Shown piece by piece: positions 17,499-33,005 of a stretch of 64,000 bases of DNA. A model generated the notes under the pieces. The model worked only from the letters and a program-made list of their open reading frames with translations, searched no databases and was not told the origin of the DNA. Within the stretch, counting starts at the first letter, position 1, and each line of letters begins with the position of its first letter. Origin of the DNA: Terriglobia bacterium (GTDB lineage Bacteria > Acidobacteriota > Terriglobia > 20CM-2-55-15); assembly GCA_963664115.2 (NCBI GenBank), contig CAXWPJ010000006.1, forward strand, positions 160,001 through 224,000, written 5' to 3'. The position numbers and the translations under genes were made by a program.

Positions 17499-18966
17499 TA
17501 CTACTGTGTTACAAACGAAGCGGCCCACAGAGCGGACAGCACGGGAGTTGCTGGATGAGGAATCGTGCGATGCGAATGCGAAGTGAGGCGATCGAGCACG
17601 GATTATGTCGCTCGGGCCGGATCCGGGGCTCCGCGGGGTTTGAAGTGTCTGGGGAGTTGGGGGACGGATAGTCCAACATGCGTGACAAATGCAGAGGGGG
17701 AAAAACGGTTCCGCTCAGCGACCAGGAACCCATAAGCTGCGATGCATAAAGCGCCATGGTGGTGAAATCCACGCCAGCCGCGACCTTCGTAATGGCCCAG
17801 TCCGAGTTCCTGCTTGAGTTCCTGATAGTCGCGTTCGATGATCCAGCGATGCTTGGCCCGATAGACCAGATTTGAAAGAGAGGTATTGGTCCCGAGACTG
17901 GAGAGCCAGTATTGAACCGGTTCGGATTCGGTCTTGGGCCATTCGATCAACAACCATTCTTCCGGATGGGGCTCGTGGCGCTCATGATCGCGATGAGCCG
18001 TGCGAATCCGGATTGCGGCGAAGCGGGAGCGCAACGTGTCGGCCGTGCCTTCGCGCCAGGACACGTTCTTCCATTTTTGTCGAGGCAAGGAGAGAGCCAG
18101 TTGTTTGACCGAAACAGGACGATGCTTCTTGTGACGCCTCAACAGCGTCGGCGGGCGCCCCTGGCCGGTCCACGACTTCTTGGGCAGGGGTTGCCGACCG
18201 GGCTCCCAGACCGAGGTCGAGGATTGGATGCCAACCACATAAGGCAGCCCCAGTGCGGTAATCGTCGCGCGAAACTTACTGTCGTTGCCGTAGGCGGCAT
18301 CGGCCAACACGGGAGCCGTCCCCACACCGTCCGCAATCGCCTGTCGGATTTGGTCCAGAGCAATCGCAATCTTGGTCTGGAATCCAACCGCGTCGGGGAC
18401 ACCGGTCTTCTTGCGGCGTTCGGCATCGTTCGCCCAAAGCTTCGGCAGGTACAGCCGCCATGCCACGGGCAGACTCGATTTCGCCGTCGCTACCGACAGA
18501 CTGACCGCCACCCGGCAGTTCTCCTGCTTGCCGACCTGTCCACAGTATTGCCGGGCCACACCTACCGAGTGGGTCCCCTTCTTCACGAATCCGGTGTCGT
18601 CGACAATCCACGATTCAATCGGACCGTGCGCTTCCATCCCCGGCAACGTCGACTCCCGGACTTGTCGCAATATGGCCGCATCCTCCCAGGGGGCATCCGC
18701 CACCAGGTGATGCAGCGACTGATGCATTTGGCGCACATTATCCGGAGCCAATCGCGCCGCCATCGGTTCCACGCTCTTGCGCTTGATTGGCAGCAGCAAT
18801 CCCTTGCAGTACCACTTCAGCGGTTCATGACGGTCGGCGTGTCCGGCGGCCGACGCCAGGCGTTCCATATAGGCCGCAAAACGTTCTTCCTGAGTGCCTG
18901 GCGCCTTCGTTTTGGCGCTCATGTGCAAATGCTAACACAAGCTCGTCATTTTGTAACACAGTAGTA
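17499..18966 (-). mobile_element. IS701-family insertion sequence, copy 1
   Basis: Perfect 17-bp IR tactactgtgttacaaa / tttgtaacacagtagta; CTAG on both flanks (17495-17498, 18967-18970). Confidence 0.93.
17603..18922 (-). CDS. IS701-family DDE transposase
   Basis: IVDDTGFVKKGTHSVGVARQYCG, LADAAYG and RWIIERDYQELKQELGLGHYEGRGWRGFHHH. Confidence 0.93.
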   Translation of the reverse strand: MSAKTKAPGTQEERFAAYMERLASAAGHADRHEPLKWYCKGLLLPIKRKSVEPMAARLAPDNVRQMHQSLHHLVADAPWEDAAILRQVRESTLPGMEAHGPIESWIVDDTGFVKKGTHSVGVARQYCGQVGKQENCRVAVSLSVATAKSSLPVAWRLYLPKLWANDAERRKKTGVPDAVGFQTKIAIALDQIRQAIADGVGTAPVLADAAYGNDSKFRATITALGLPYVVGIQSSTSVWEPGRQPLPKKSWTGQGRPPTLLRRHKKHRPVSVKQLALSLPRQKWKNVSWREGTADTLRSRFAAIRIRTAHRDHERHEPHPEEWLLIEWPKTESEPVQYWLSSLGTNTSLSNLVYRAKHRWIIERDYQELKQELGLGHYEGRGWRGFHHHGALCIAAYGFLVAERNRFSPSAFVTHVGLSVPQLPRHFKPRGAPDPARAT

Positions 18967-22238: not shown

Positions 22239-23706
22239 TACTACTGTGTTACAAACGAAGCGGCCCACAGAGCGGACAGCACGGGAGTTGCTGGATGAGG
22301 AATCGTGCGATGCGAATGCGAAGTGAGGCGATCGAGCACGGATTATGTCGCTCGGGCCGGATCCGGGGCTCCGCGGGGTTTGAAGTGTCTGGGGAGTTGG
22401 GGGACGGATAGTCCAACATGCGTGACAAATGCAGAGGGGGAAAAACGGTTCCGCTCAGCGACCAGGAACCCATAAGCTGCGATGCATAAAGCGCCATGGT
22501 GGTGAAATCCACGCCAGCCGCGACCTTCGTAATGGCCCAGTCCGAGTTCCTGCTTGAGTTCCTGATAGTCGCGTTCGATGATCCAGCGATGCTTGGCCCG
22601 ATAGACCAGATTTGAAAGAGAGGTATTGGTCCCGAGACTGGAGAGCCAGTATTGAACCGGTTCGGATTCGGTCTTGGGCCATTCGATCAACAACCATTCT
22701 TCCGGATGGGGCTCGTGGCGCTCATGATCGCGATGAGCCGTGCGAATCCGGATTGCGGCGAAGCGGGAGCGCAACGTGTCGGCCGTGCCTTCGCGCCAGG
22801 ACACGTTCTTCCATTTTTGTCGAGGCAAGGAGAGAGCCAGTTGTTTGACCGAAACAGGACGATGCTTCTTGTGACGCCTCAACAGCGTCGGCGGGCGCCC
22901 CTGGCCGGTCCACGACTTCTTGGGCAGGGGTTGCCGACCGGGCTCCCAGACCGAGGTCGAGGATTGGATGCCAACCACATAAGGCAGCCCCAGTGCGGTA
23001 ATCGTCGCGCGAAACTTACTGTCGTTGCCGTAGGCGGCATCGGCCAACACGGGAGCCGTCCCCACACCGTCCGCAATCGCCTGTCGGATTTGGTCCAGAG
23101 CAATCGCGATTTTGGTCTGGAATCCAACCGCGTCGGGGACACCGGTCTTCTTGCGGCGTTCGGCATCGTTCGCCCAAAGCTTCGGCAGGTACAGCCGCCA
23201 TGCCACGGGCAGACTCGATTTCGCCGTCGCTACCGACAGACTGACCGCCACCCGGCAGTTCTCCTGCTTGCCGACCTGTCCACAGTATTGCCGGGCCACA
23301 CCTACCGAGTGGGTCCCCTTCTTCACGAATCCGGTGTCGTCGACAATCCACGATTCAATCGGACCGTGCGCTTCCATCCCCGGCAACGTCGACTCCCGGA
23401 CTTGTCGCAATATGGCCGCATCCTCCCAGGGGGCATCCGCCACCAGGTGATGCAACGACTGATGCATTCGGCGCACATTATCCGGAGCCAATCGCGCCGC
23501 CATCGGCTCCACGCTCTTGCGCTTGATTGGCAGCAGCAATCCCTTGCAGTACCACTTCAGCGGTTCATGACGGTCGGCGTGTCCGGCGGCCGACGCCAGG
23601 CGTTCCATATAGGCCGCAAAACGTTCTTCCTGAGTGCCTGGCGCCTTCGTTTTGGCGCTCATGTGCCAATGCTAACACAAGCTCGTCATTTTGTAACACA
23701 GTAGTA
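22239..23706 (-). mobile_element. IS701-family insertion sequence, copy 2 (direct repeat of copy 1, offset 4740 bp)
   Basis: Same IRs as copy 1; CTAG flanks at 22235-22238 and 23707-23710; differs from copy 1 at only about six positions seen by eye. Confidence 0.93.
22343..23662 (-). CDS. IS701-family DDE transposase
   Basis: Same protein as 17603-18922 except NVRQM to NVRRM. Confidence 0.93.
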   Translation of the reverse strand: MSAKTKAPGTQEERFAAYMERLASAAGHADRHEPLKWYCKGLLLPIKRKSVEPMAARLAPDNVRRMHQSLHHLVADAPWEDAAILRQVRESTLPGMEAHGPIESWIVDDTGFVKKGTHSVGVARQYCGQVGKQENCRVAVSLSVATAKSSLPVAWRLYLPKLWANDAERRKKTGVPDAVGFQTKIAIALDQIRQAIADGVGTAPVLADAAYGNDSKFRATITALGLPYVVGIQSSTSVWEPGRQPLPKKSWTGQGRPPTLLRRHKKHRPVSVKQLALSLPRQKWKNVSWREGTADTLRSRFAAIRIRTAHRDHERHEPHPEEWLLIEWPKTESEPVQYWLSSLGTNTSLSNLVYRAKHRWIIERDYQELKQELGLGHYEGRGWRGFHHHGALCIAAYGFLVAERNRFSPSAFVTHVGLSVPQLPRHFKPRGAPDPARAT

Positions 23707-23709
23707 CTA

Positions 23710-24014
23710 GCAGCCCGTGGCTAAAGTCGGCCGAGCGATCATCGTGCTCGGTTAGATAATTTTCTTACACTGACGCCTCGGCTCCGCCTCTTTACTATGA
23801 AAGCTGTCCACCCGCACCGGGGGGCCGGTGCGGGTCCTCCAGTGCCTGCTTCAAAATGTCGTTCAGCCCTTTAGGCCTCGCAGTCAGGACGATTGCGAGG
23901 GTCGGCGGTCGTTCAGACAGGATGTCTGAATGAACGATCGAGCGAAATCTTCTCCCAGCAGCGAACCGTTCGCATCACCTAGCACAGCCGGATTCGACTT
24001 TGACCTCCGACTCC
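23710..24014 (-). mobile_element. MITE-like element (~300 bp) carrying copy A of the structured repeat
   Basis: Left end ctagcagcccgtggctaaagtcg resembles the 17.2-kb MITE end. The right end read inward, ctaggagtcggaggtcaaagtcg, matches it at 17 of 23 positions. The right CTAG contains the argR stop codon. Confidence 0.6.
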
Positions 24015-24457
24015 TAGGACCGCAGATCTTCAGTTCGCTTCAGGGTTTCTTTGAGATCACCGGCTGAGCGGCAGAGGACGAAGATGGTGTCGTCCCCCGC
24101 AATCGTGCCGACGATTTCCCTCCAGCCTGCGTTGTCCACAGCGTCGGCAACGGTGGAGGCGCTGCCGGTCGTGGTCCTGATCACGAGCAGCGGCGCTACG
24201 CTGTCGATTGCGACCACATAATCTCTTAAGACGCGACGCAGGGTTTGCTTTGAAGTGCGGCGGGCCTCGGGCCGCCCCACGACATAAGCGCTGCCCGCCT
24301 TGACCAGCCCGAGTTCCTTAATATCCCGTGACAAAGTGGCCTGGGAGACCTCGATGCCGTTTCGGTGCAGCGCGTTGGCCAGAACGTGTTGGCTTCCGAT
24401 GCGATTTTCCCGAACCAGTTCTAAAATAGAGTTTTGGCGGTCTCGTTTGCTCCTCAT
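24014..24457 (-). CDS. argR: Arginine repressor
   Basis: VSQATLSRDIKELGLVK and IVGTIAGDDTIFV. Confidence 0.95.
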   Translation of the reverse strand: MRSKRDRQNSILELVRENRIGSQHVLANALHRNGIEVSQATLSRDIKELGLVKAGSAYVVGRPEARRTSKQTLRRVLRDYVVAIDSVAPLLVIRTTTGSASTVADAVDNAGWREIVGTIAGDDTIFVLCRSAGDLKETLKRTEDLRS

Positions 24458-24485: not shown

Positions 24486-24544
24486 TTGACTTCATAGAAG
24501 TCCAAAGTGCATAATTATTCATTCGTATAGGATGAATATTCATT
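24486..24544 (+). promoter_or_regulatory. Sigma70-type promoter overlapped by tandem ARG boxes
   Basis: TTGACT (24486-24491), 18 bp, CATAAT (24510-24515). The 18-mers AGTGCATAATTATTCATT (24506-24523) and ATAGGATGAATATTCATT (24527-24544) are 3 bp apart and resemble WNTGAATWWWWATTCANW; they lie between divergent argR and argB. Confidence 0.8.
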
Positions 24545-24564: not shown

Positions 24565-25485
24565 ATGAAGAGATCTCCGACAACTGCAGCGTGGCCCGTT
24601 CTGGATAAATATCGCGATACGTGTTTCGTAGTGAAGCTCGGCGGCCAGCCGCTGACCGACCCGGAGGCACTCAACAGTCTCGCCTTCGATCTATCCATTC
24701 TCCGTCAGGCTGGGGTCCGTGTCGTCGTCGTTCATGGCGGCGGTCCGCAGTTGTCGGAGATGTCTGAGCGGCTTGGCCTGGAAACTAAGAAAATCGACGG
24801 TCGCCGGATTACGGATAACAACACCCTGAAGCTGGCGAAAATGGTTTTTGCCGGCGAGATCTCGACGGATATCGTAGCCGCTCTCCGCCGCCACGGAGTG
24901 TCCGGTATCGGGTTGAGTGGTGTTGATGGTGAGTTGGTCGACGCCGAGCGTCGGGCTCCGGTTTGGCGGACTAATCCGGAAACAGGCGAGGAAGAATTGA
25001 TCGACTTCGATCATGTGGGTGATATCCGTCAGGTGAACCCGTTCGTATTGAACGTATTGCTCGACCAGGGTTTTGTCCCTGTCGTTGCTTCTCTTGGATC
25101 GGATAAAGCCGGTTCCGTCCTCAACATCAATGCCGATACCGTTGCCGCTGAAATTGCGATAGCCATCGGGGCAGAGAAACTGGTTGTGATGTCTGATGTT
25201 CCCGGATTGTTACGCGACGTCGGCGATCGCAATAGCCGGATTCCAGATATTACAGTCGATGCTGTCCGAGAACTCAAACAGACCGGCAGCGTTTCGGGTG
25301 GGATGCTCCCGAAGCTTGAGAGCATCATCCGCACTATCGAATCCGGTACGGAGCAGATCCACATCCTGGATGGGCATACGCCGCACGCCCTTCTGGAGGA
25401 ACTCAGCGGACCCGGTACCCACGGTACTTTCATTTCCTCAGCCAGGCACGCCGGGGGTGTCTCGATCGGGCACGAGCCGGCCTGA
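24565..25485 (+). CDS. argB: Acetyl(acyl)glutamate kinase
   Basis: VVKLGG, VVVHGGGPQ, GRRITD, NINADTVA and GGMLPKL. Confidence 0.93.
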   Translation: MKRSPTTAAWPVLDKYRDTCFVVKLGGQPLTDPEALNSLAFDLSILRQAGVRVVVVHGGGPQLSEMSERLGLETKKIDGRRITDNNTLKLAKMVFAGEISTDIVAALRRHGVSGIGLSGVDGELVDAERRAPVWRTNPETGEEELIDFDHVGDIRQVNPFVLNVLLDQGFVPVVASLGSDKAGSVLNINADTVAAEIAIAIGAEKLVVMSDVPGLLRDVGDRNSRIPDITVDAVRELKQTGSVSGGMLPKLESIIRTIESGTEQIHILDGHTPHALLEELSGPGTHGTFISSARHAGGVSIGHEPA

Positions 25486-26912
25486 TGCGCGCCGCTCGGT
25501 TTGCGGCGCCTATGAATCCTCACTTTCGCGCCCTCAACGCCAGTATTGGTTTCGATAAACGTTTGCTCCACGAGGACATCGACGGGAGCCGTGCGTGGGT
25601 TCGTGCGCTCTCCGGTTCCGGGCTTCTCTCCGATGAGGAGGCACAAAAAATCGATGAAGGCCTGGAAGGAGTGCGGAAGGGGATTGAGTCAGGCGAACTT
25701 CCCTTGTCGGAAGAACTCGAAGACATTCACATGAATGTGGAGGCCTTGCTTGCCGATGCGGTGGGTCCTGTGGCTGGCAAACTTCACACGGGCCGCAGTC
25801 GCAACGAGCAGGTAGCGACGGATTTGAGGCTCTACCTGCGTGATCGCTCTCGGCGGATCGCAGCCGATCTGTTGTCCCTCGTTACCACGCTCGCTGAGAC
25901 GGCCGAGCGGAACTACGACGTAGTCATACCGGCCTATACACATTTGCAGCGGGCGCAGCCGGTCCTGTTCGCTCACCATTTCCTTGCGTACGCGGAAATG
26001 TTTCTCAGAGATCACGAGCGGCTGCTCTGGGCAGCGAATCAAGCCGATGCCTGTGTGCTTGGAGCGGGTGCCTGCGTCGGCAATCAGTTTGGCATCGACC
26101 GGGAATACTTACGTGAAAACCTCGGTTTTTCACGTCTCACGCATAACTCTCTCGACGCTGTAAGCGACCGGGATTTTGTATGTGACTTTCTGCACGCGGC
26201 GGTCATGTTTCTGGTCCATGTGTCCCGCTTGAGCGAGGACATCATCCTCTGGTCGTCCAGCGAATTCGGGTTCGTCGAACTGGATGAATCCGTGTCTTCG
26301 GGCAGTTCGATGCTTCCGCAAAAGAAGAATCCGGATGCGTGTGAGCTGGGGCGCGCGAAGTGCGGGCGTGTGCTTGGACATCTGGTGGCTTCGGTTTCGA
26401 TGTTGAAAGGTCTGCCGTTGTCCTACAACAAGGATCTCCAGGAGGACAAGGAAGGTACGTTCGACGCGGTGGATACCATAGCGGCGCTGATACCGGTCTT
26501 CGAGGTCGTCGTGGGCAAGTTAAGCGTCAATCGCGAACGGGCGGGGTCCGCCCTTCGAGGAGGATATCTGGAGGCCATTTCGGTTGCCGACTACTTCACA
26601 CGCAAGGGAATGCCTTTTCGTGAAGCGCACTCGGTTGCGGGCAAACTTGTCCGCCTGGCCGAAGAGCGTGTCGTGTCGTTATCGGAGCTGTCGATCGAGG
26701 ACTATCGGGAGCTTGCCGGTGACATGGCCGACAGCGTAGACGAAGACCTGTTCGAAGCCATCACGCTGGAGGCTGCTTTGGAGAGCAAGGACGTCGTCGG
26801 TGGTACCGCGCCCAGACGTGTGGCCGAGGAAATTGATCGCGTTAAGAAGCTTGTCGAACAGCTTCGGAAACATCAGATCCCGGGTAATCGCGAGGTGACT
26901 CTTGGCGGATAA
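25485..26912 (+). CDS. argH: Argininosuccinate lyase
   Basis: EDIHMNVE, LHTGRSRNEQ, YTHLQRAQP, GSSMLPQKKNPD and YNKDLQEDKE. Confidence 0.95.
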   Translation: MRAARFAAPMNPHFRALNASIGFDKRLLHEDIDGSRAWVRALSGSGLLSDEEAQKIDEGLEGVRKGIESGELPLSEELEDIHMNVEALLADAVGPVAGKLHTGRSRNEQVATDLRLYLRDRSRRIAADLLSLVTTLAETAERNYDVVIPAYTHLQRAQPVLFAHHFLAYAEMFLRDHERLLWAANQADACVLGAGACVGNQFGIDREYLRENLGFSRLTHNSLDAVSDRDFVCDFLHAAVMFLVHVSRLSEDIILWSSSEFGFVELDESVSSGSSMLPQKKNPDACELGRAKCGRVLGHLVASVSMLKGLPLSYNKDLQEDKEGTFDAVDTIAALIPVFEVVVGKLSVNRERAGSALRGGYLEAISVADYFTRKGMPFREAHSVAGKLVRLAEERVVSLSELSIEDYRELAGDMADSVDEDLFEAITLEAALESKDVVGGTAPRRVAEEIDRVKKLVEQLRKHQIPGNREVTLGG

Positions 26913-28110
26913 GAAGAAAGTCGTCCTGGCGTATTCAGGAGGGTTGGATACTTCGTATTGTGTCCTGCATCTCCAGGAACAGGGATTCGAGGTGATTACG
27001 CTCACCGTCGATACCGGTGGTTTTTCCGCGTCCGAGCTCAGTGAAATGGAGGCGCGAGCCAAGCAGCTCGGGGCGGCGGAACATCACACTGTCGATGCGC
27101 GGGCACAGGTGTTCGACGAGTACGTCAGCTACCAGATCAAAGGAAATATTCTGCGGGGACAGGTATACCCCCTGGCGGTTGCGGCCGAGCGTGTCGTGCA
27201 GGCGTCGGTGGTAGCCGACTATGCCATCCGCGTGGGCGCCGCCGCCGTTGCCCACGGGTCCACAGGCGCTGGTAACGATCAGGTTCGTTTCGACGTCGTC
27301 TTCCAGGTGCTTTGTCCGGCACTGGAAATCATTTCGCCGGTCCGTGACGAAACGCTGACCCGGGAGGAAGAGTATTCGAAACTGGCCGAACGAGGAGTCA
27401 AGATTCCTGATTCGACACGGAAGTATTCGATCAACACAGGCCTTTGGGGTGGGACGATCGGGGGCGGGGAAACACACGACTCTTGGGCAGAGATTCCGGA
27501 CCATGTATACGATCTGGTTCTCGACAGTGAGCAGGAGATTGAATCCGAGCACCTTACGATTGAATTTGAAAAAGGTATTCCAACAAAAATCGACGACACC
27601 GCATATGCCGGTCCGGAACTGATTTCTGTGCTTGGGAACAAGTGCCGCGGCCATCGTGTGGGTCTGGATGTTCATATCGGTGACACGGTCCTGGGGATCA
27701 AGGGACGTATCGCATTTGAGGCCGGCGCCGCTATCGTGCTGATTAAAGCGCACAGGGAACTGGAGAAGATCACAACCACGTCGTGGCAGCGTTTCTGGAA
27801 AGACCAGATGGCAGAGTTCTACGGAAAGCTGTTGCACGAGGGCCTGGCCTTTGAGCCGGCCCTGCGGGATATCGAAGCGCTGATCGACAGCTCCCAGGAG
27901 CGTGTGTCCGGTGAGGCGCGCGTCCGGCTGGACCGCGGCCATTTCACTGTAACCGGTGTCCGCAGCCCGCACAGCATGATGGACTCCGGCAGCGGGGTGT
28001 ACGGTGAAATGCCGAAGCTCTGGGACGGTTCCGACACGCGTGGGTACGGCAAAATTGTTGCGGTGCCGGCTCGACTTCATCGAAGCGCCGCCGGTAAAGG
28101 ATCCGAGTAG
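26902..28110 (+). CDS. argG: Argininosuccinate synthase
   Basis: VLAYSGGLDTS, AHGSTGAGNDQVRF and GDTVLGIKGRIAFEA. Confidence 0.95.
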   Translation: MADKKKVVLAYSGGLDTSYCVLHLQEQGFEVITLTVDTGGFSASELSEMEARAKQLGAAEHHTVDARAQVFDEYVSYQIKGNILRGQVYPLAVAAERVVQASVVADYAIRVGAAAVAHGSTGAGNDQVRFDVVFQVLCPALEIISPVRDETLTREEEYSKLAERGVKIPDSTRKYSINTGLWGGTIGGGETHDSWAEIPDHVYDLVLDSEQEIESEHLTIEFEKGIPTKIDDTAYAGPELISVLGNKCRGHRVGLDVHIGDTVLGIKGRIAFEAGAAIVLIKAHRELEKITTTSWQRFWKDQMAEFYGKLLHEGLAFEPALRDIEALIDSSQERVSGEARVRLDRGHFTVTGVRSPHSMMDSGSGVYGEMPKLWDGSDTRGYGKIVAVPARLHRSAAGKGSE

Positions 28111-28139
28111 TTTTTTGTAATTCGATACAGTAGAGAAAG

Positions 28140-29195
28140 ATGGCCGAGACTATTCAGTTAGATAAAATCGCATCAGTGGTGAGTCGCGTCGGCTTGCCCC
28201 GAACTGTATCGATTACTTCCAAGCTCGAGTCGACTTCCGGAAACGCGATCGTAGTTCGCGTTTTGCCCGACGGTAGGGCCAGACAAGAACTCGAACTGTC
28301 GGACGGCCGAATGATCCGAATGTTCGGCGATGATGTTATCGTCGGCGCCCTTGGACGCCGCCGGGCGCTGAGGGGACACGTGGGCGACGTCCCGTCGAGC
28401 GTGAGAGTTGGAGACCGGTTGGCCATATTGAACCGCGGGGGCGTGGTGGGTACTTCGGCCTCCTCCGATCCGGAGCCGGAAGGCCCGCTGGCATGCGAAG
28501 TTCTGGGAATGCCCATCATCGACGGACGGATTCCCAACATTCGCGACAATGCCATCAAGAACGTATCAAGTCTTGTCGGGATGGCTATCCCTCCGATCGT
28601 GATCGTATCCGGCACCTCGATGGCGAGCGGGAAAACGAGTTTGCTGACGGAACTGGTTCAGGTTTTGTCTAAAAAAGGCATTCGTGTGGCCGCGGGCAAG
28701 CTGACCGGAGTTGCATGTTTGAGAGATCTGCTGTCAATGGAAGATAACGGCGCTGTCGAGACCGCTTCGTTCCTGGATGCGGGTTACCCATCGACGGCGG
28801 GTCTGGAAGCGGCGGTCCTGATCGATACCGCGAAGGCCGTGATCGCCGAGCTGGCGGCGGGCAACCCCGAGGTCATGCTTCTGGAATTGGGCGATGGTAT
28901 CGTGGGCGATTACGGTGTGATCGATGTCCTGGTTGATCCTGAGATTCGTGATGTCGTTCATGTGCACGCATTTTGTGCGAATGACCTGGCCGGTGCGTGG
29001 GGAGGTCTTCGATTTGCCCAGGAGCATGGACTCGATATCGATCTGTTTGCGGGGCCTGCGACAGACAACCTTGTGGGTGTCGAATACCTGGAGTCGGAGT
29101 TCAACCGTCCCGCGATCAACGCTTGTAAACATCCCGCCCGAATGGCGGAAGTCGTTTTGACTCTCCTGAAGCTGAAGAAGCGCAAGGTTTCCTGA
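28140..29195 (+). CDS. DUF1611/DgcN-like P-loop protein of unknown function inside the arg cluster
   Basis: GTSMASGKT, AAGKLTGVACLRD, FLDAGYPST and LELGDGI, preceded by an N-terminal beta domain (IVGALGRRRA). Confidence 0.7.
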   Translation: MAETIQLDKIASVVSRVGLPRTVSITSKLESTSGNAIVVRVLPDGRARQELELSDGRMIRMFGDDVIVGALGRRRALRGHVGDVPSSVRVGDRLAILNRGGVVGTSASSDPEPEGPLACEVLGMPIIDGRIPNIRDNAIKNVSSLVGMAIPPIVIVSGTSMASGKTSLLTELVQVLSKKGIRVAAGKLTGVACLRDLLSMEDNGAVETASFLDAGYPSTAGLEAAVLIDTAKAVIAELAAGNPEVMLLELGDGIVGDYGVIDVLVDPEIRDVVHVHAFCANDLAGAWGGLRFAQEHGLDIDLFAGPATDNLVGVEYLESEFNRPAINACKHPARMAEVVLTLLKLKKRKVS

Positions 29196-29236: not shown

Positions 29237-29342
29237 AGATTTCGCTCGGTCGTTGATGCGGTTCTTTAAACAAACCCGCAGCGTTCCTCGCTGCGGGTGG
29301 ACAACGAGGCGGTCGCCGAGGCGTCAGAGTAAATAGGATGAT
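29237..29342 (+). repeat. Structured repeat, copy B (internally deleted)
   Basis: agatttcgctcggtcgtt is joined directly to gatgcggttc...aaacccgcagcgttcctcgctgcgggtggacaacgaggcggtcgccgaggcgtcagagtaa; nearly identical to blocks of copy C. Confidence 0.85.
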
Positions 29343-29425
29343 CGGATGGGAAGAGAACAGCGTTGTGAAGCACCGATCTTCTCACCGACGGCTCTAACGA
29401 CCCGTCAACCGTTCCAAGAAACAAC

Positions 29426-30472
29426 ATGGCTAAGGCTAGGGACAATATCGGTGTCGGCGTTCTCGGTGCCTCAGGATACATAGGTGCGGAGTTGATGCGC
29501 TATGTTGCGCTGCATCCTCGTCTGTCGCTTCGATGGGCAACGGCCAACCGGGACGCGGGTCGGCCCGTTGGCGACGTGTTTCCGAACCTCCAGGGCTTCG
29601 TGAATCAAAGTTTTCTTAAGGCGGAAGAGGTCGAGACCCGGTTTGGCGAAGTCGCAGCCGTATTCCTGGCTCTCCCGCACCATGAATCCCAGGAAGTCTT
29701 ACCTTCACTGGTAGATGCTTATCCGGAAACGGTTTTCATCGATCTTGCAGGAGATTTCCGGACTCCCGATGCTGAAGGTTATCGCCGCTATTACGGACGT
29801 GATCATCAGGCTCCTGAATTGTTGGAGCGTTTTGTCTATGGCTTTACCGAGGTTCAGCGCAAAGCGCTGGCGGGTGCGCGCCTGATCGCCAATCCGGGTT
29901 GTTTCGCAACTGGAATGCTTCTGCTCTTGTATCCCCTGGCCCAAAGCGGTCTCTTGTCGGAACCCGTGTGTCTGACCGGTATCACGGGATCTTCCGGTTC
30001 CGGGCGTCAAGCTATCACGACGACCCATCACCCGGAACGTGCGCAGAACGTCCGGGCTTACAGGTCGCTGGTGCACCAGCATCTACTGGAAGTCGAGTGG
30101 TTTCTCAACAGAGGTTCCGGACCGGACATCCGACTCCAGTTCGTGTCACAGTCGGCCCCGATCGTGCGTGGAATATTCACAACACTGTTTCTGCCAGCTC
30201 AGGAAGCCGCTGCGGTACGCGAGGTGTATGAGGGGTTTTACGGCGCCGAGGCCCTCATCGACGTCGTTGAGGGGTCGCCCGATCTAAGGTCCGTACAGAC
30301 GACGCCCCGGTCTGTCGTCGGAGTCGATGGCGCAGCCGGGAGAGGTGCAGTTGTCTTCTCGACGATCGACAACCTGGGCAAGGGTGCGGCCGGCCAGGCT
30401 ATACAGAATCTCAACTGCGCACTCGGGCTTGGCGAAACGGAGGGTTTGGATTGGCCAGGAGGTTTTGTTTGA
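29426..30472 (+). CDS. argC: N-acetyl(acyl)-gamma-glutamyl-phosphate reductase
   Basis: GASGYIGAEL, IDLAGDFR, IANPGCFAT and IDNLGKGAAGQAIQN. Confidence 0.95.
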   Translation: MAKARDNIGVGVLGASGYIGAELMRYVALHPRLSLRWATANRDAGRPVGDVFPNLQGFVNQSFLKAEEVETRFGEVAAVFLALPHHESQEVLPSLVDAYPETVFIDLAGDFRTPDAEGYRRYYGRDHQAPELLERFVYGFTEVQRKALAGARLIANPGCFATGMLLLLYPLAQSGLLSEPVCLTGITGSSGSGRQAITTTHHPERAQNVRAYRSLVHQHLLEVEWFLNRGSGPDIRLQFVSQSAPIVRGIFTTLFLPAQEAAAVREVYEGFYGAEALIDVVEGSPDLRSVQTTPRSVVGVDGAAGRGAVVFSTIDNLGKGAAGQAIQNLNCALGLGETEGLDWPGGFV

Positions 30473-31647
30473 AGAACGCGCAGTCCATCCCCCAATTGGA
30501 AGACGCCTATACCTTGCCGGTCTATAGCAACATACGCTTGCCCTTGACGATCGTGAAAGGCAAGGGCAACTGCGTCTACGATGACGATGGAAACGAATAT
30601 CTCGATTTGTATGGCGGACACGCGGTCTGCAGCATCGGTCACTCGCATCCAGACTGGGTTCACGACATGCAGCGACAGATTGAGACGCTGACGTTCTATT
30701 CCAACGCAGTGTACAACCCGGTGCGTGCTGAGGCTGCGGAGGTGCTGGTCACACACAGCTACCCGTCCATGCACTCGGTCTTTTTCTGTAATTCGGGTGC
30801 CGAGGCTAACGAGACGGCGATGAAGATTGCACGGAAGGCAACCGGCCGCGGGCTAGTCGTGTCAATGCAGCGTGGGTTCCACGGCAGAACGATCGGGGCA
30901 CTGAGCGCGACGGGCTTCCCGGCGATGCGTGAGCGTTTTCCGGAAAATATCGAAGCCTGGAGTCGGTTCTTCGAGTTTGGCTCGGCGGACATTTTCGATA
31001 TGGAAGATCCCGACGAGGTCTCAGCGATTATTGTAGAGCCCATTCAGAGTGTGGCCGGAGTGTACATGGCGGAGCCGGACTACTACCGGCGATTGAGAGA
31101 GTTCTCGAGCGACCATGGGATCTGCCTCATTTTCGATGAGGTGCAGACTGGATCGGGACGAACAGGCGCGTGGTATGCAGGCACGCACTGGGGCGTGGAG
31201 CCAGACATCGTCACCACAGCCAAAGGTGTTGCAGGTGGCATGCCGGCCGGCGTTGTCATCGCAAATGAGTTTGTGGCCGGGACCGTCGAGCCCGGTGATC
31301 AGGCGACTACGTTCGGAGGCAATCCACTGGCGGCGGCGGCGATATGTGCGACGTACCGGGTAATCGAGAAAGGCAAACTTGTCGATCGGGTCCGGGACCA
31401 TTCGTCCCAGGTCATTTCGCGACTGCTGGAGCTCGAGGCTGTCCGTGAGGTCCGGGGCTTGGGATATTTGCTCGGTGTCGAGTGTTCCGTGTCTGCGAAA
31501 GAGCTGTCGGGCCGTTTGCTCAAGGAGCGGATTCTGGTGGGCACGTGCGCCCAGGGGGAAACCATCCGCTTGCTGCCTCCGTTGACCATGAACATGGATG
31601 AATGGGAACACTTTCTGGAAGTATTTGGGAAGGTGGTTAAGGGTTGA
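30469..31647 (+). CDS. argD: Acetyl(acyl)ornithine aminotransferase (class III PLP enzyme)
   Basis: FFCNSGAEANE, FHGRT, IFDEVQTG and DIVTTAKG; probable TTG start overlapping the argC stop. Confidence 0.9.
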   Translation: MKNAQSIPQLEDAYTLPVYSNIRLPLTIVKGKGNCVYDDDGNEYLDLYGGHAVCSIGHSHPDWVHDMQRQIETLTFYSNAVYNPVRAEAAEVLVTHSYPSMHSVFFCNSGAEANETAMKIARKATGRGLVVSMQRGFHGRTIGALSATGFPAMRERFPENIEAWSRFFEFGSADIFDMEDPDEVSAIIVEPIQSVAGVYMAEPDYYRRLREFSSDHGICLIFDEVQTGSGRTGAWYAGTHWGVEPDIVTTAKGVAGGMPAGVVIANEFVAGTVEPGDQATTFGGNPLAAAAICATYRVIEKGKLVDRVRDHSSQVISRLLELEAVREVRGLGYLLGVECSVSAKELSGRLLKERILVGTCAQGETIRLLPPLTMNMDEWEHFLEVFGKVVKG

Positions 31648-31729: not shown

Positions 31730-31939
31730 AGAAGATTTCGCTCGGTCGTTCAACCGGCCGACCATCTCTGTCGCGATTCACGCGTGGGCCGAACGAGGGG
31801 CGACCCTCACCATCATCCTGATGGCGAGGCTTATTGGGGACAAAGAAACGTTGATGCAGTTCCCCAACAAAACCCGCAGCGTTCCTCGCTGCGAATGGAC
31901 AACGAGGCGGTAGCCGAGGCGTCAGAGTAATAGGATGAT
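31730..31939 (+). repeat. Structured repeat, copy C (full length)
   Basis: Shares ordered blocks agaagatttcgctcg, gaacga, cgaccctc...tcctga...gaggc, cccgca...tgcg, tggaca and gaggcgg...gccgaggcgtcag with 23765-23953 on the minus strand. Confidence 0.85.
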
Positions 31940-32006
31940 TTGTTCGGATCCGAACGAAACTTTGAATCAACGAACTTCTAATCCAACTATCTAGCAACTT
32001 CACGCC

Positions 32007-33005
32007 ATGAACCACTTTTACAATCTCGCCGACCTTTCCGTAGAAGCCGTCGAATCCCTTCTCGACGATGCGGCCCAATTCAAAAAGCAGCCCTTAGGAA
32101 AGGATCTGGACGGTCTCCAGTTTGCGCTCCTGTTCCTCGCCCCCTCACTCCGGACACGCTGTTCTTTTGAAGTCGGCATACGCCAGTTGGGTGGAGGTGT
32201 GTCGACGCTGGAACCTTCCATGTTCTATGGGCTCGAGACGCGCGATGGAGTGCGGATGGACGGAGATAGTGCGGAGCACATCAAGGAGGCTGTGCCCGTC
32301 CTTTCTGGGTTTTACTCCGGTCTGGGTCTGAGAGTGATGGCGGCAGGGAAGTCTGCCGATGAGGATTTGGGTGATCGGATGTTCGAGGCGTTTCGGAGAC
32401 ACGCGAAAGTCCCGGTCTTCAACATGGAGTCGGCACTTTACCATCCATGCCAGGCGCTGGCGGACATGCTCACCATTCGCGAACTCCTGGGATCTCACAA
32501 GGGGCGCCGCCTGACACTGACCTGGGCGCCGCACCCACGCCCTCTACCCACGGCAGTTCCCAATTCGCTCCTTCTGGCTGCCGCACAGTTGGGGATGGAC
32601 GTGACCGTCACCCATCCGGAGGGTTTTGATCTGCCTGAATCGATCACGACGAAAGCGGCCGAACTGTCGCAGGCTGCGGGTGGACGGATACGCACCTCAC
32701 ATGACCAGAAAGCCGCTTTCAAAGACGCGGAGATCGTTTACGCGAAGTCCTGGGGCGCGCTGTCCCGATACGATTCTGCTGATGGGGAACAGGAATTGAG
32801 ACAGTCCCATTCCAAGTGGACGGTCGACGGGGCTCTGATGAACGATTCTGCGAACGCCTACTTCATGCATTGTCTGCCCGTCCGGCGCAACGTCGTTGTG
32901 ACGGATGAAGTGATCGACCATCCACGGTCCGCCGTCCTCGGGCAGGCAGAAAACCGGCTTCACGCCCAGAAAGCAGTCCTCAAATCGCTTTACGCCGGCC
33001 AGTAA
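32007..33005 (+). CDS. argF: N-acyl-ornithine carbamoyltransferase (ArgF', AOTCase/SOTCase family)
   Basis: SLRT carbamoyl-phosphate motif, MDGDSAEHIKE, HPCQALAD, proline-rich TWAPHPRPLP loop, YAKSW and HCLPVRRNV; no SMG loop as in canonical OTCase. Confidence 0.9.
   Translation: MNHFYNLADLSVEAVESLLDDAAQFKKQPLGKDLDGLQFALLFLAPSLRTRCSFEVGIRQLGGGVSTLEPSMFYGLETRDGVRMDGDSAEHIKEAVPVLSGFYSGLGLRVMAAGKSADEDLGDRMFEAFRRHAKVPVFNMESALYHPCQALADMLTIRELLGSHKGRRLTLTWAPHPRPLPTAVPNSLLLAAAQLGMDVTVTHPEGFDLPESITTKAAELSQAAGGRIRTSHDQKAAFKDAEIVYAKSWGALSRYDSADGEQELRQSHSKWTVDGALMNDSANAYFMHCLPVRRNVVVTDEVIDHPRSAVLGQAENRLHAQKAVLKSLYAGQ

Follow-up and report, generated by a model that had tools for sequence, protein, structure and literature searches.

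The 351-residue P-loop protein encoded within the arginine operon of this Terriglobia bacterium, for which we use the working label X, probably catalyses the first step of arginine biosynthesis; to judge from the sequences of the operon's products, it is likely to succinylate L-glutamate at its amino group, giving N-succinyl-L-glutamate. The assignment to this step draws on arg-operon context, the mutual exclusion of X with ArgJ and ArgA, and one fusion to an ArgB-like kinase. The same role has already been predicted in print for the family, of which X is a further member. The features of the region, numbered within the window (the whole 64,000-nucleotide stretch that was analysed), are as follows.

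24014..24457, minus strand: argR, divergent (TIGR01529 over cut-off)
24506..24544: tandem ARG-box-like sites, 3 bp apart (best genome match to what we take to be the consensus)
24565..25485, plus strand: argB, N-acylglutamate kinase (TIGR00761 over cut-off)
25485..26912, plus strand: argH, argininosuccinate lyase (TIGR00838 over cut-off)
26902..28110, plus strand: argG, argininosuccinate synthase (TIGR00032 over cut-off)
28140..29195, plus strand: X, 351 residues and stop
28140..28553, plus strand: N-terminal domain of X, residues 1-138, almost all-beta, with invariant E52 and R74 (AlphaFold2, pLDDT 90.1, and conservation)
28566..29186, plus strand: SIMIBI-class P-loop domain of X, about residues 143-349 (VIA Z 14.9-16.8; conservation in 241 members)
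29426..30472, plus strand: argC, N-acyl-glutamyl-phosphate reductase (TIGR01850 over cut-off)
30451..31647, plus strand: argD-type class III aminotransferase (best match TIGR00707, 357.5 bits, below the cut-off of 410)
32007..33005, plus strand: argF', N-acylornithine carbamoyltransferase with succinyl-type residues A89, P181 and V297 (NF003384, 388.9 bits, cut-off 288)

NCBIfam and Pfam profiles place argR on the minus strand, divergent from the series argB-argH-argG-X-argC-argD-argF'. X starts 29 bp beyond the end of argG (28110 to 28140) and carries the motifs GTSMASGKT (residues 158-166), GKLTGVACLRD (186-196), DAGYPST (213-219) and ELGDG (249-253), all as the initial annotation of this DNA had described. 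That annotation had also linked the cluster to ARG boxes, and this is borne out: scored against a sequence that we assume to be the ARG-box consensus, the 18-mers at 24506-24523 and 24527-24544 have one and three mismatches respectively, they form the sole tandem pair with five or fewer mismatches in the 4.89-Mb genome, and the only single site genome-wide with at most one mismatch falls within this pair.

It had further been noted that the cluster lacks argA and argJ, and the statement extends to the genome, which is 96.96% complete. Profile searches of it returned no ArgJ and no classical ArgA, the sole match to the latter being argB itself through its kinase part; nothing passed the cut-off for short ArgA, with GNAT matches that were weak. 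A search with the DUF619/NAT profile (PF04768) gave no match, but the positive controls were equally silent. A LysW-type pathway was considered, some carriers of X having short kinases, and was set aside: the two kinases tested score best as ArgB, and nothing in this genome exceeds the cut-off for LysX/ArgX. X itself is present in a single copy, and argF' and one other enzyme are the only transcarbamylases of the genome. The arg cluster is also without argE, a point that the initial annotation did not record. The best ArgE-like M20 peptidase of the genome scores 135 bits against a cut-off of 298 and sits in a dapE-dapB-dapA-dapD operon, so that formally two steps of the pathway, not one, are without an assigned enzyme, a point against the proposed role; this M20 enzyme may double as an N-succinylcitrulline desuccinylase. 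The dap operon (contig C2, 124815-128317, of this genome, G000; locus L154), in which the DapE-like M20 gene occupies 127345-128295, is of the succinylase type, with a DapD of the succinyltransferase type.

X belongs to a widespread family that is without a family name. Of the 8000 candidates scored, 877 have an E of 0.001 or lower, and 503 clusters at 50% identity reach 1e-30 or lower; no Pfam domain was found in 120 relatives among the matches listed. The named relatives are mostly metagenome-assembled genomes (MAGs) of Acidobacteriota and Planctomycetota, the nearest (86%) being from a Terriglobia MAG, and the clusters matched in the ESM Atlas are mostly unnamed, with one named automatically as DUF1611 and one carrying PF07755 on 16% of its members, a link that we treat as no more than a lead. 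The 80 loci kept out of 586 found, many of them cut by contig ends, all have an arg neighbour (argG, argC, argH, argB or argF'): argC is present at 75, argG at 74, argD at 67, argF' at 59, argR at 57, argB at 54 and argH at 51. An M20 gene occurs at five, and none was seen in the fetched stretch of the other 75. Five operons (L094, L164, L166, L169 and L171), which were picked by hand and not sampled, encode ArgD, ArgF', ArgB, an ArgE/DapE-like M20, ArgH, ArgG and ArgC together with X, leaving X as the sole gene without an assigned step; such full operons, in which every step but the first is accounted for, point to step 1. The three M20 proteins of X operons that were typed by profile (L094, L006 and L061) are ArgE/DapE-like.

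The distribution of X across the phylum points the same way. In a sample of 201 genomes a strong match was found in 52, including this one, the sister clade alone in seven and a fragment in one; the unpublished genome G023 (counted in the 52 of 201 and in the DUF1611 tallies) and the fragment G052 were omitted from the follow-ups, leaving 50 carriers. The anticorrelation with argJ that the initial annotation had proposed as a check is seen, ArgJ being present in none of the 50 carriers and in 51 of the 148 non-carriers (24 of 80 plus 27 of 68). Co-occurrence with ArgA, its other genomic check, is not: both classical and short ArgA exceed the cut-off in none of the 50, short ArgA giving one weak match, and the search profiles include no model for the divergent short GNAT types of Bacteroides and Corynebacterium. 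Counted against the role are the 97 of 148 non-carriers that likewise are without ArgJ. Among 37 near relatives ArgJ was found in none of eight carriers and in 23 of 29 non-carriers, one being a contig-end fragment. Related genomes are not independent, and these distributions are therefore read as patterns and not as P-values.

Further support comes from the downstream half of the pathway, which is not uniform among carriers. ArgF' is present in 39 of the 50, and the other 11 have an ordinary OTCase elsewhere (over cut-off in the two checked), with X inside an X-argC-argD-argB module. That X accompanies both the ArgF' route and the ordinary OTCase route indicates that the common step lies upstream. 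The carriers of the OTCase type are G032, G048, G060, G084, G096, G108, G141, G151, G161, G170 and G188 (loci L081-L091), and no deacylase was seen in their modules.

In P0162, a 626-residue metagenomic protein, X is fused to a kinase domain that resembles ArgB (PF00696, E 5e-33). The arrangement is like that of known synthase-kinase fusions and counts for a role in step 1; an amino-acid-kinase domain is likewise part of ArgA and NAGS-K. The kinase part scores 127 bits with TIGR00761, below the cut-off of 151, and its usual KxGG and NAD motifs, as we take them to be, read KIAD and ASD. By analogy with classical ArgA, this domain may be regulatory and inactive. P0162 is one single-member metagenomic cluster seen on four contigs, and a metagenome scan found no locus for it. 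A search for X fusions of 661-2000 residues found none, which is weak evidence, and long open frames in six genomes proved not to be fusions.

The initial annotation had proposed that X supplies the missing first step with a non-GNAT fold, as a member of the DUF1611/DgcN family. The proposed role is well supported by context, exclusion and fusion, and the family label fails. X scores 13.3 bits with PF07755 (E 0.056) against a cut-off of 25, no protein of this genome matches that profile, and PDB sequence searches, whether with X alone or with a 107-sequence profile, return neither DgcN nor any other DUF1611 protein. When the X profile is compared with 28 DUF1611 proteins the probability is 11% (E 0.0027), over the P-loop domain only. 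The motifs also differ: DUF1611 proteins have GTD..GK[RM]TT at the P-loop (28 of 28, this being the motif by which they were picked) and EGQG (24 of 28), whereas the X family has GT[CS]M..GKT and ELGDG, and the lysine at X position 187 has no counterpart in the DUF1611 profile. True DUF1611 genes are present separately in 3 of the 50 carriers. A sister protein, more distant from X, scores barely over the PF07755 cut-off (26.2 bits), which links the two families. Loci of the X sister clade (L096-L100; E 1e-36 to 1e-48) have arg genes at none of five, and their neighbours are mixed, including an M20 peptidase, a YheC/D ATP-grasp protein and an ABC exporter.

Structural comparison, which the initial annotation had suggested be made with DgcN, gave a divided answer: the P-loop domain does match DgcN, but it matches BioD equally. 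In Foldseek searches with X the SRP GTPases come out on top, 2obn ranks 17th and 7xrj (DgcN) 45th, the DUF1611 structures having E values of 2.3e-5 and 7e-5, the latter that of 7xrj with an rmsd of 5.5. VIA Z scores of the P-loop domain are 16.8 for the DUF1611 structure 2g0t (rmsd 3.1, 177 residues aligned), 15.4 for 2obn and 14.9 for 7xrj (rmsd 3.5, 183 aligned), set against 16.4, 16.1 and 15.6 for BioD chains, 15.3 for CTP synthase and 13.3 for formyl-THF synthetase. The structural match of X to DUF1611 and DgcN is thus confined to the SIMIBI P-loop C-terminal domain. The N-terminal domain of DUF1611 proteins is Rossmann-like. That of X, whose full-length AlphaFold model has a mean pLDDT of 93.6, is nearly all beta when modelled alone (pLDDT 90.1). 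Foldseek matched it to nothing at E up to 0.001, and its best VIA Z, 3.7, is to LexA/signal-peptidase beta domains, with DUF1611 chains absent among 34 rows; these searches establish neither that the fold is new nor that it differs from the one in DUF1611. In addition DgcN is a catabolic enzyme with D-Glu as its substrate, as stated in the accessible text of two papers (PMC13759103, PMC12363236). ArgA, GNAT and ArgJ profiles of Pfam and NCBIfam give no match to X at E up to 0.1, and X differs in fold from classical ArgA, short GNAT ArgA, NAGS-kinase and ArgJ, while likely serving the same step.

Conservation across 241 core members, a redundant set, identifies the candidate working parts of the protein. 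G164, K165 and T166 of the Walker A motif and a second lysine, K187, are invariant (241 of 241), and D196, E249 (Walker-B-like), D252, D282, E52 and R74 are conserved at about 100%. BioD likewise has an intact Walker A, a second lysine and a Walker B glutamate, and K187 pairs with the lysine of the BioD motif in a profile search of the PDB, although the alignment is weak (E 0.12). Identity to BioD and the SIMIBI ligases is 12-19%, and the all-beta N-terminal domain and the arg-operon context belong to X. BioD, CobB/CobQ and formyl-THF synthetase are SIMIBI ligases that act through an acyl-phosphate. By analogy with these enzymes X would activate its acid substrate with Mg-ATP as an acyl-phosphate, and the all-beta domain, with E52 and R74, would help to bind the amino-acid substrate. 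Such a route is slightly favoured over a DgcN-like transfer from succinyl-CoA. The intact Walker A, second lysine and Walker B glutamate speak for ATP ligation, as does the fact that BioD matches the structure equally well; kinship with DgcN makes succinyl-CoA transfer nearly as likely. The full proposal, in which X would act as a succinate:L-glutamate ligase driven by ATP without need of CoA and would use a beta domain that has no clear solved relative, is correspondingly tentative, and we would put it at somewhat under an even chance. To our knowledge BioD-type acyl-phosphate chemistry is not known for the first step of arginine synthesis.

On either chemistry, X would make N-succinyl-L-glutamate for ArgB, and ArgB, ArgC and ArgD would carry the succinylated intermediate to N-succinylornithine, which ArgF' would carbamoylate. 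Succinate would then be removed by an M20 hydrolase whose gene lies apart from the cluster, leaving ArgG and ArgH to complete the synthesis of arginine; in this genome the hydrolase may be the DapE-like one from the dap operon.

The identity of the acyl group is read from ArgF', and the initial annotation, which had allowed either N-acetyl- or N-succinyl-L-glutamate as the product, can be narrowed to this extent: residue identities in ArgF' favour succinyl over acetyl. By alignment A89, P181 and V297 of ArgF' correspond to E92, N185 and K302 of the Xanthomonas AOTCase (in a numbering that includes a 20-residue tag), and the available part of the relevant study gives the succinyl-type residues at the three positions as A/S/P/V/Q, P and V/I/E (PMC4581275). 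Among 61 neighbouring ArgF' proteins none has the acetyl-type E92, N185 or K302. Position 92 is T in 47, A in 7, S in 5, Q in 1 and P in 1; position 185 is P in 59 and A in 2; and position 302 is I in 42, V in 14 and E in 5. Threonine, the commonest residue at position 92, lies outside the succinyl-type list in that part of the study (PMC4581275). That X performs the same step with N-acetyl-L-glutamate as its product is hence quite unlikely, both because the three succinyl-type residues are all present in the genome's sole N-acylornithine carbamoyltransferase and because the acetyl-type residues are missing from the 61 neighbouring ArgF' proteins. What speaks for an acetyl product is that DgcN, the nearest characterised relative in fold, is titled an N-acetyltransferase in the PDB (7xrj), and that the 11 of 50 carriers with an ordinary OTCase offer no ArgF' from which to infer the acyl group.

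Other functions would place X elsewhere in the scheme. As an accessory NTPase (an activator, chaperone or regulator of ArgB or ArgC) it would leave the making of acylglutamate to a divergent GNAT encoded elsewhere, and the SIMIBI switches and chaperones ApbC, HypB, UreG and the SRP GTPases do crowd the lists of structural matches, argC is near X at 75 of 80 loci, and the genome has weak GNAT matches. We nevertheless consider this unlikely, as exclusion of ArgJ and ArgA is not expected of an accessory factor and amide-forming ligases are among the top structural matches. X could also act as a functional analogue of ArgJ, returning the succinyl group of N-succinylcitrulline or N-succinylornithine to glutamate and so filling the gaps left by ArgA and ArgE at once. 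Strict exclusion with ArgJ would suit such an enzyme, as would the 75 of 80 loci whose fetched stretch is free of M20 genes and the location of this genome's best M20 in a dap operon. It is made very unlikely by the dedicated ArgE/DapE-like M20 beside X in several operons, by the lack of an invariant cysteine in the 241 core members (positions 160, 193 and 279), and by the intact Walker A, for which transacylation would seem to have no obvious use. The most improbable of these functions is that of an alternative deacylase in the role of ArgE: argE is indeed lacking both in this cluster and at most loci, but X co-occurs with an in-operon M20, its fold is that of a P-loop protein, and step 1 would be left unexplained in all 50 carriers. 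Synthesis of N-succinyl-L-glutamate thus remains the preferred function of X.

The initial annotation had suspected that comparative genomics might already have arrived at this role, and so it has, for ACG33_RS14135 of Steroidobacter. In its accessible text, the 2026 GapMind study predicts this protein to be an alternative ArgA, on the grounds of arg-operon context and exclusion with the Pseudomonas-type ArgA (109 versus 970 genera), and further of ArgF' position 92 and of a weak similarity to 7XRJ in Foldseek (PMC13759103). A table there has 'no' for ACG33_RS14135 where complemented enzymes have 'yes', and the plasmids deposited include separate constructs for the Steroidobacter gene and for E. 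coli argA, neither an argA strain nor a result being listed in that text (PMC13759103). Literature searches, whose coverage mostly excluded subscription papers, found no biochemical or genetic result for any member of the X family. The insert of the published plasmid, inspected by eye, carries the X-family motifs (PMC13759103, in the part available). Four proteins named Steroidobacteraceae, together with P0137, show 37% identity to X along 96-98% of its length; these five proxies, which were chosen by the motifs from the published plasmid and stand in for the exact sequence of A0A127FCT3, score about 197 of 712 bits, or about 0.28 of their self score. X and ACG33_RS14135 are alike in length (351 and 357 residues), short motifs, arg context and succinyl-type ArgF', and equally in their weak match to 7XRJ (rmsd 5.5 for X and, in the accessible text, 5.6 for ACG33_RS14135; PMC13759103). 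They differ in lineage, the nearest named relative of X being from a Terriglobia MAG. The scope of the analyses differs too: exclusion in the accessible text was tested against the Pseudomonas-type ArgA only, and the neighbours described were of the ArgF' type only (PMC13759103). Absent from the S1B Text of that study, as far as it was available, are the exclusion of ArgJ, the fusion to an ArgB-like kinase, the conserved residues that hint at an ATP-dependent ligase, and the carriers whose OTCase is an ordinary one (PMC13759103).

As this role had been predicted in print beforehand, its assignment to X is of limited surprise. If confirmed, it would close the first-step gap in roughly one in four genomes of the phylum sample (52 of 201), as well as in the 109 genera that GapMind counts in its accessible text (PMC13759103), and would add a further unrelated solution to the N-acylation of glutamate beside GNAT ArgA, ArgJ and LysW/ArgX. 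Should the ATP-ligase reading be true, arginine synthesis would have a BioD-type start in many Acidobacteriota, Planctomycetota and Steroidobacteraceae. A succinyl-specific X could fail to rescue an E. coli argA mutant.

Several other features of the region and of related loci were observed. X and argC are separated by a 230-bp gap, not remarked on in the initial annotation, that contains a genome-wide repeat. This short intergenic element, with a hairpin core (CCCGCAGCG...CGCTGCGGG), occurs at 29250-29345 after X and at 31730-31940 after argD; the genome contains 38 further matches to the first copy. Folding of the whole element gives a z of -1.9, and the element is REP- or MITE-like. In 19 of the loci of relatives there is a gene for a 123-residue protein with a tRNA-binding domain (PF01588), as at 10179-10547 of L009, between argC and argD. 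Directly to the left of argR, two near-identical IS701-family transposases (17603-18928 and 22343-23662, both minus strand; NF033540, 419 bits each) flank a DesA-like fatty-acid desaturase and a second ORF, presumably a MoxR-type ATPase, in an arrangement that resembles a composite transposon.
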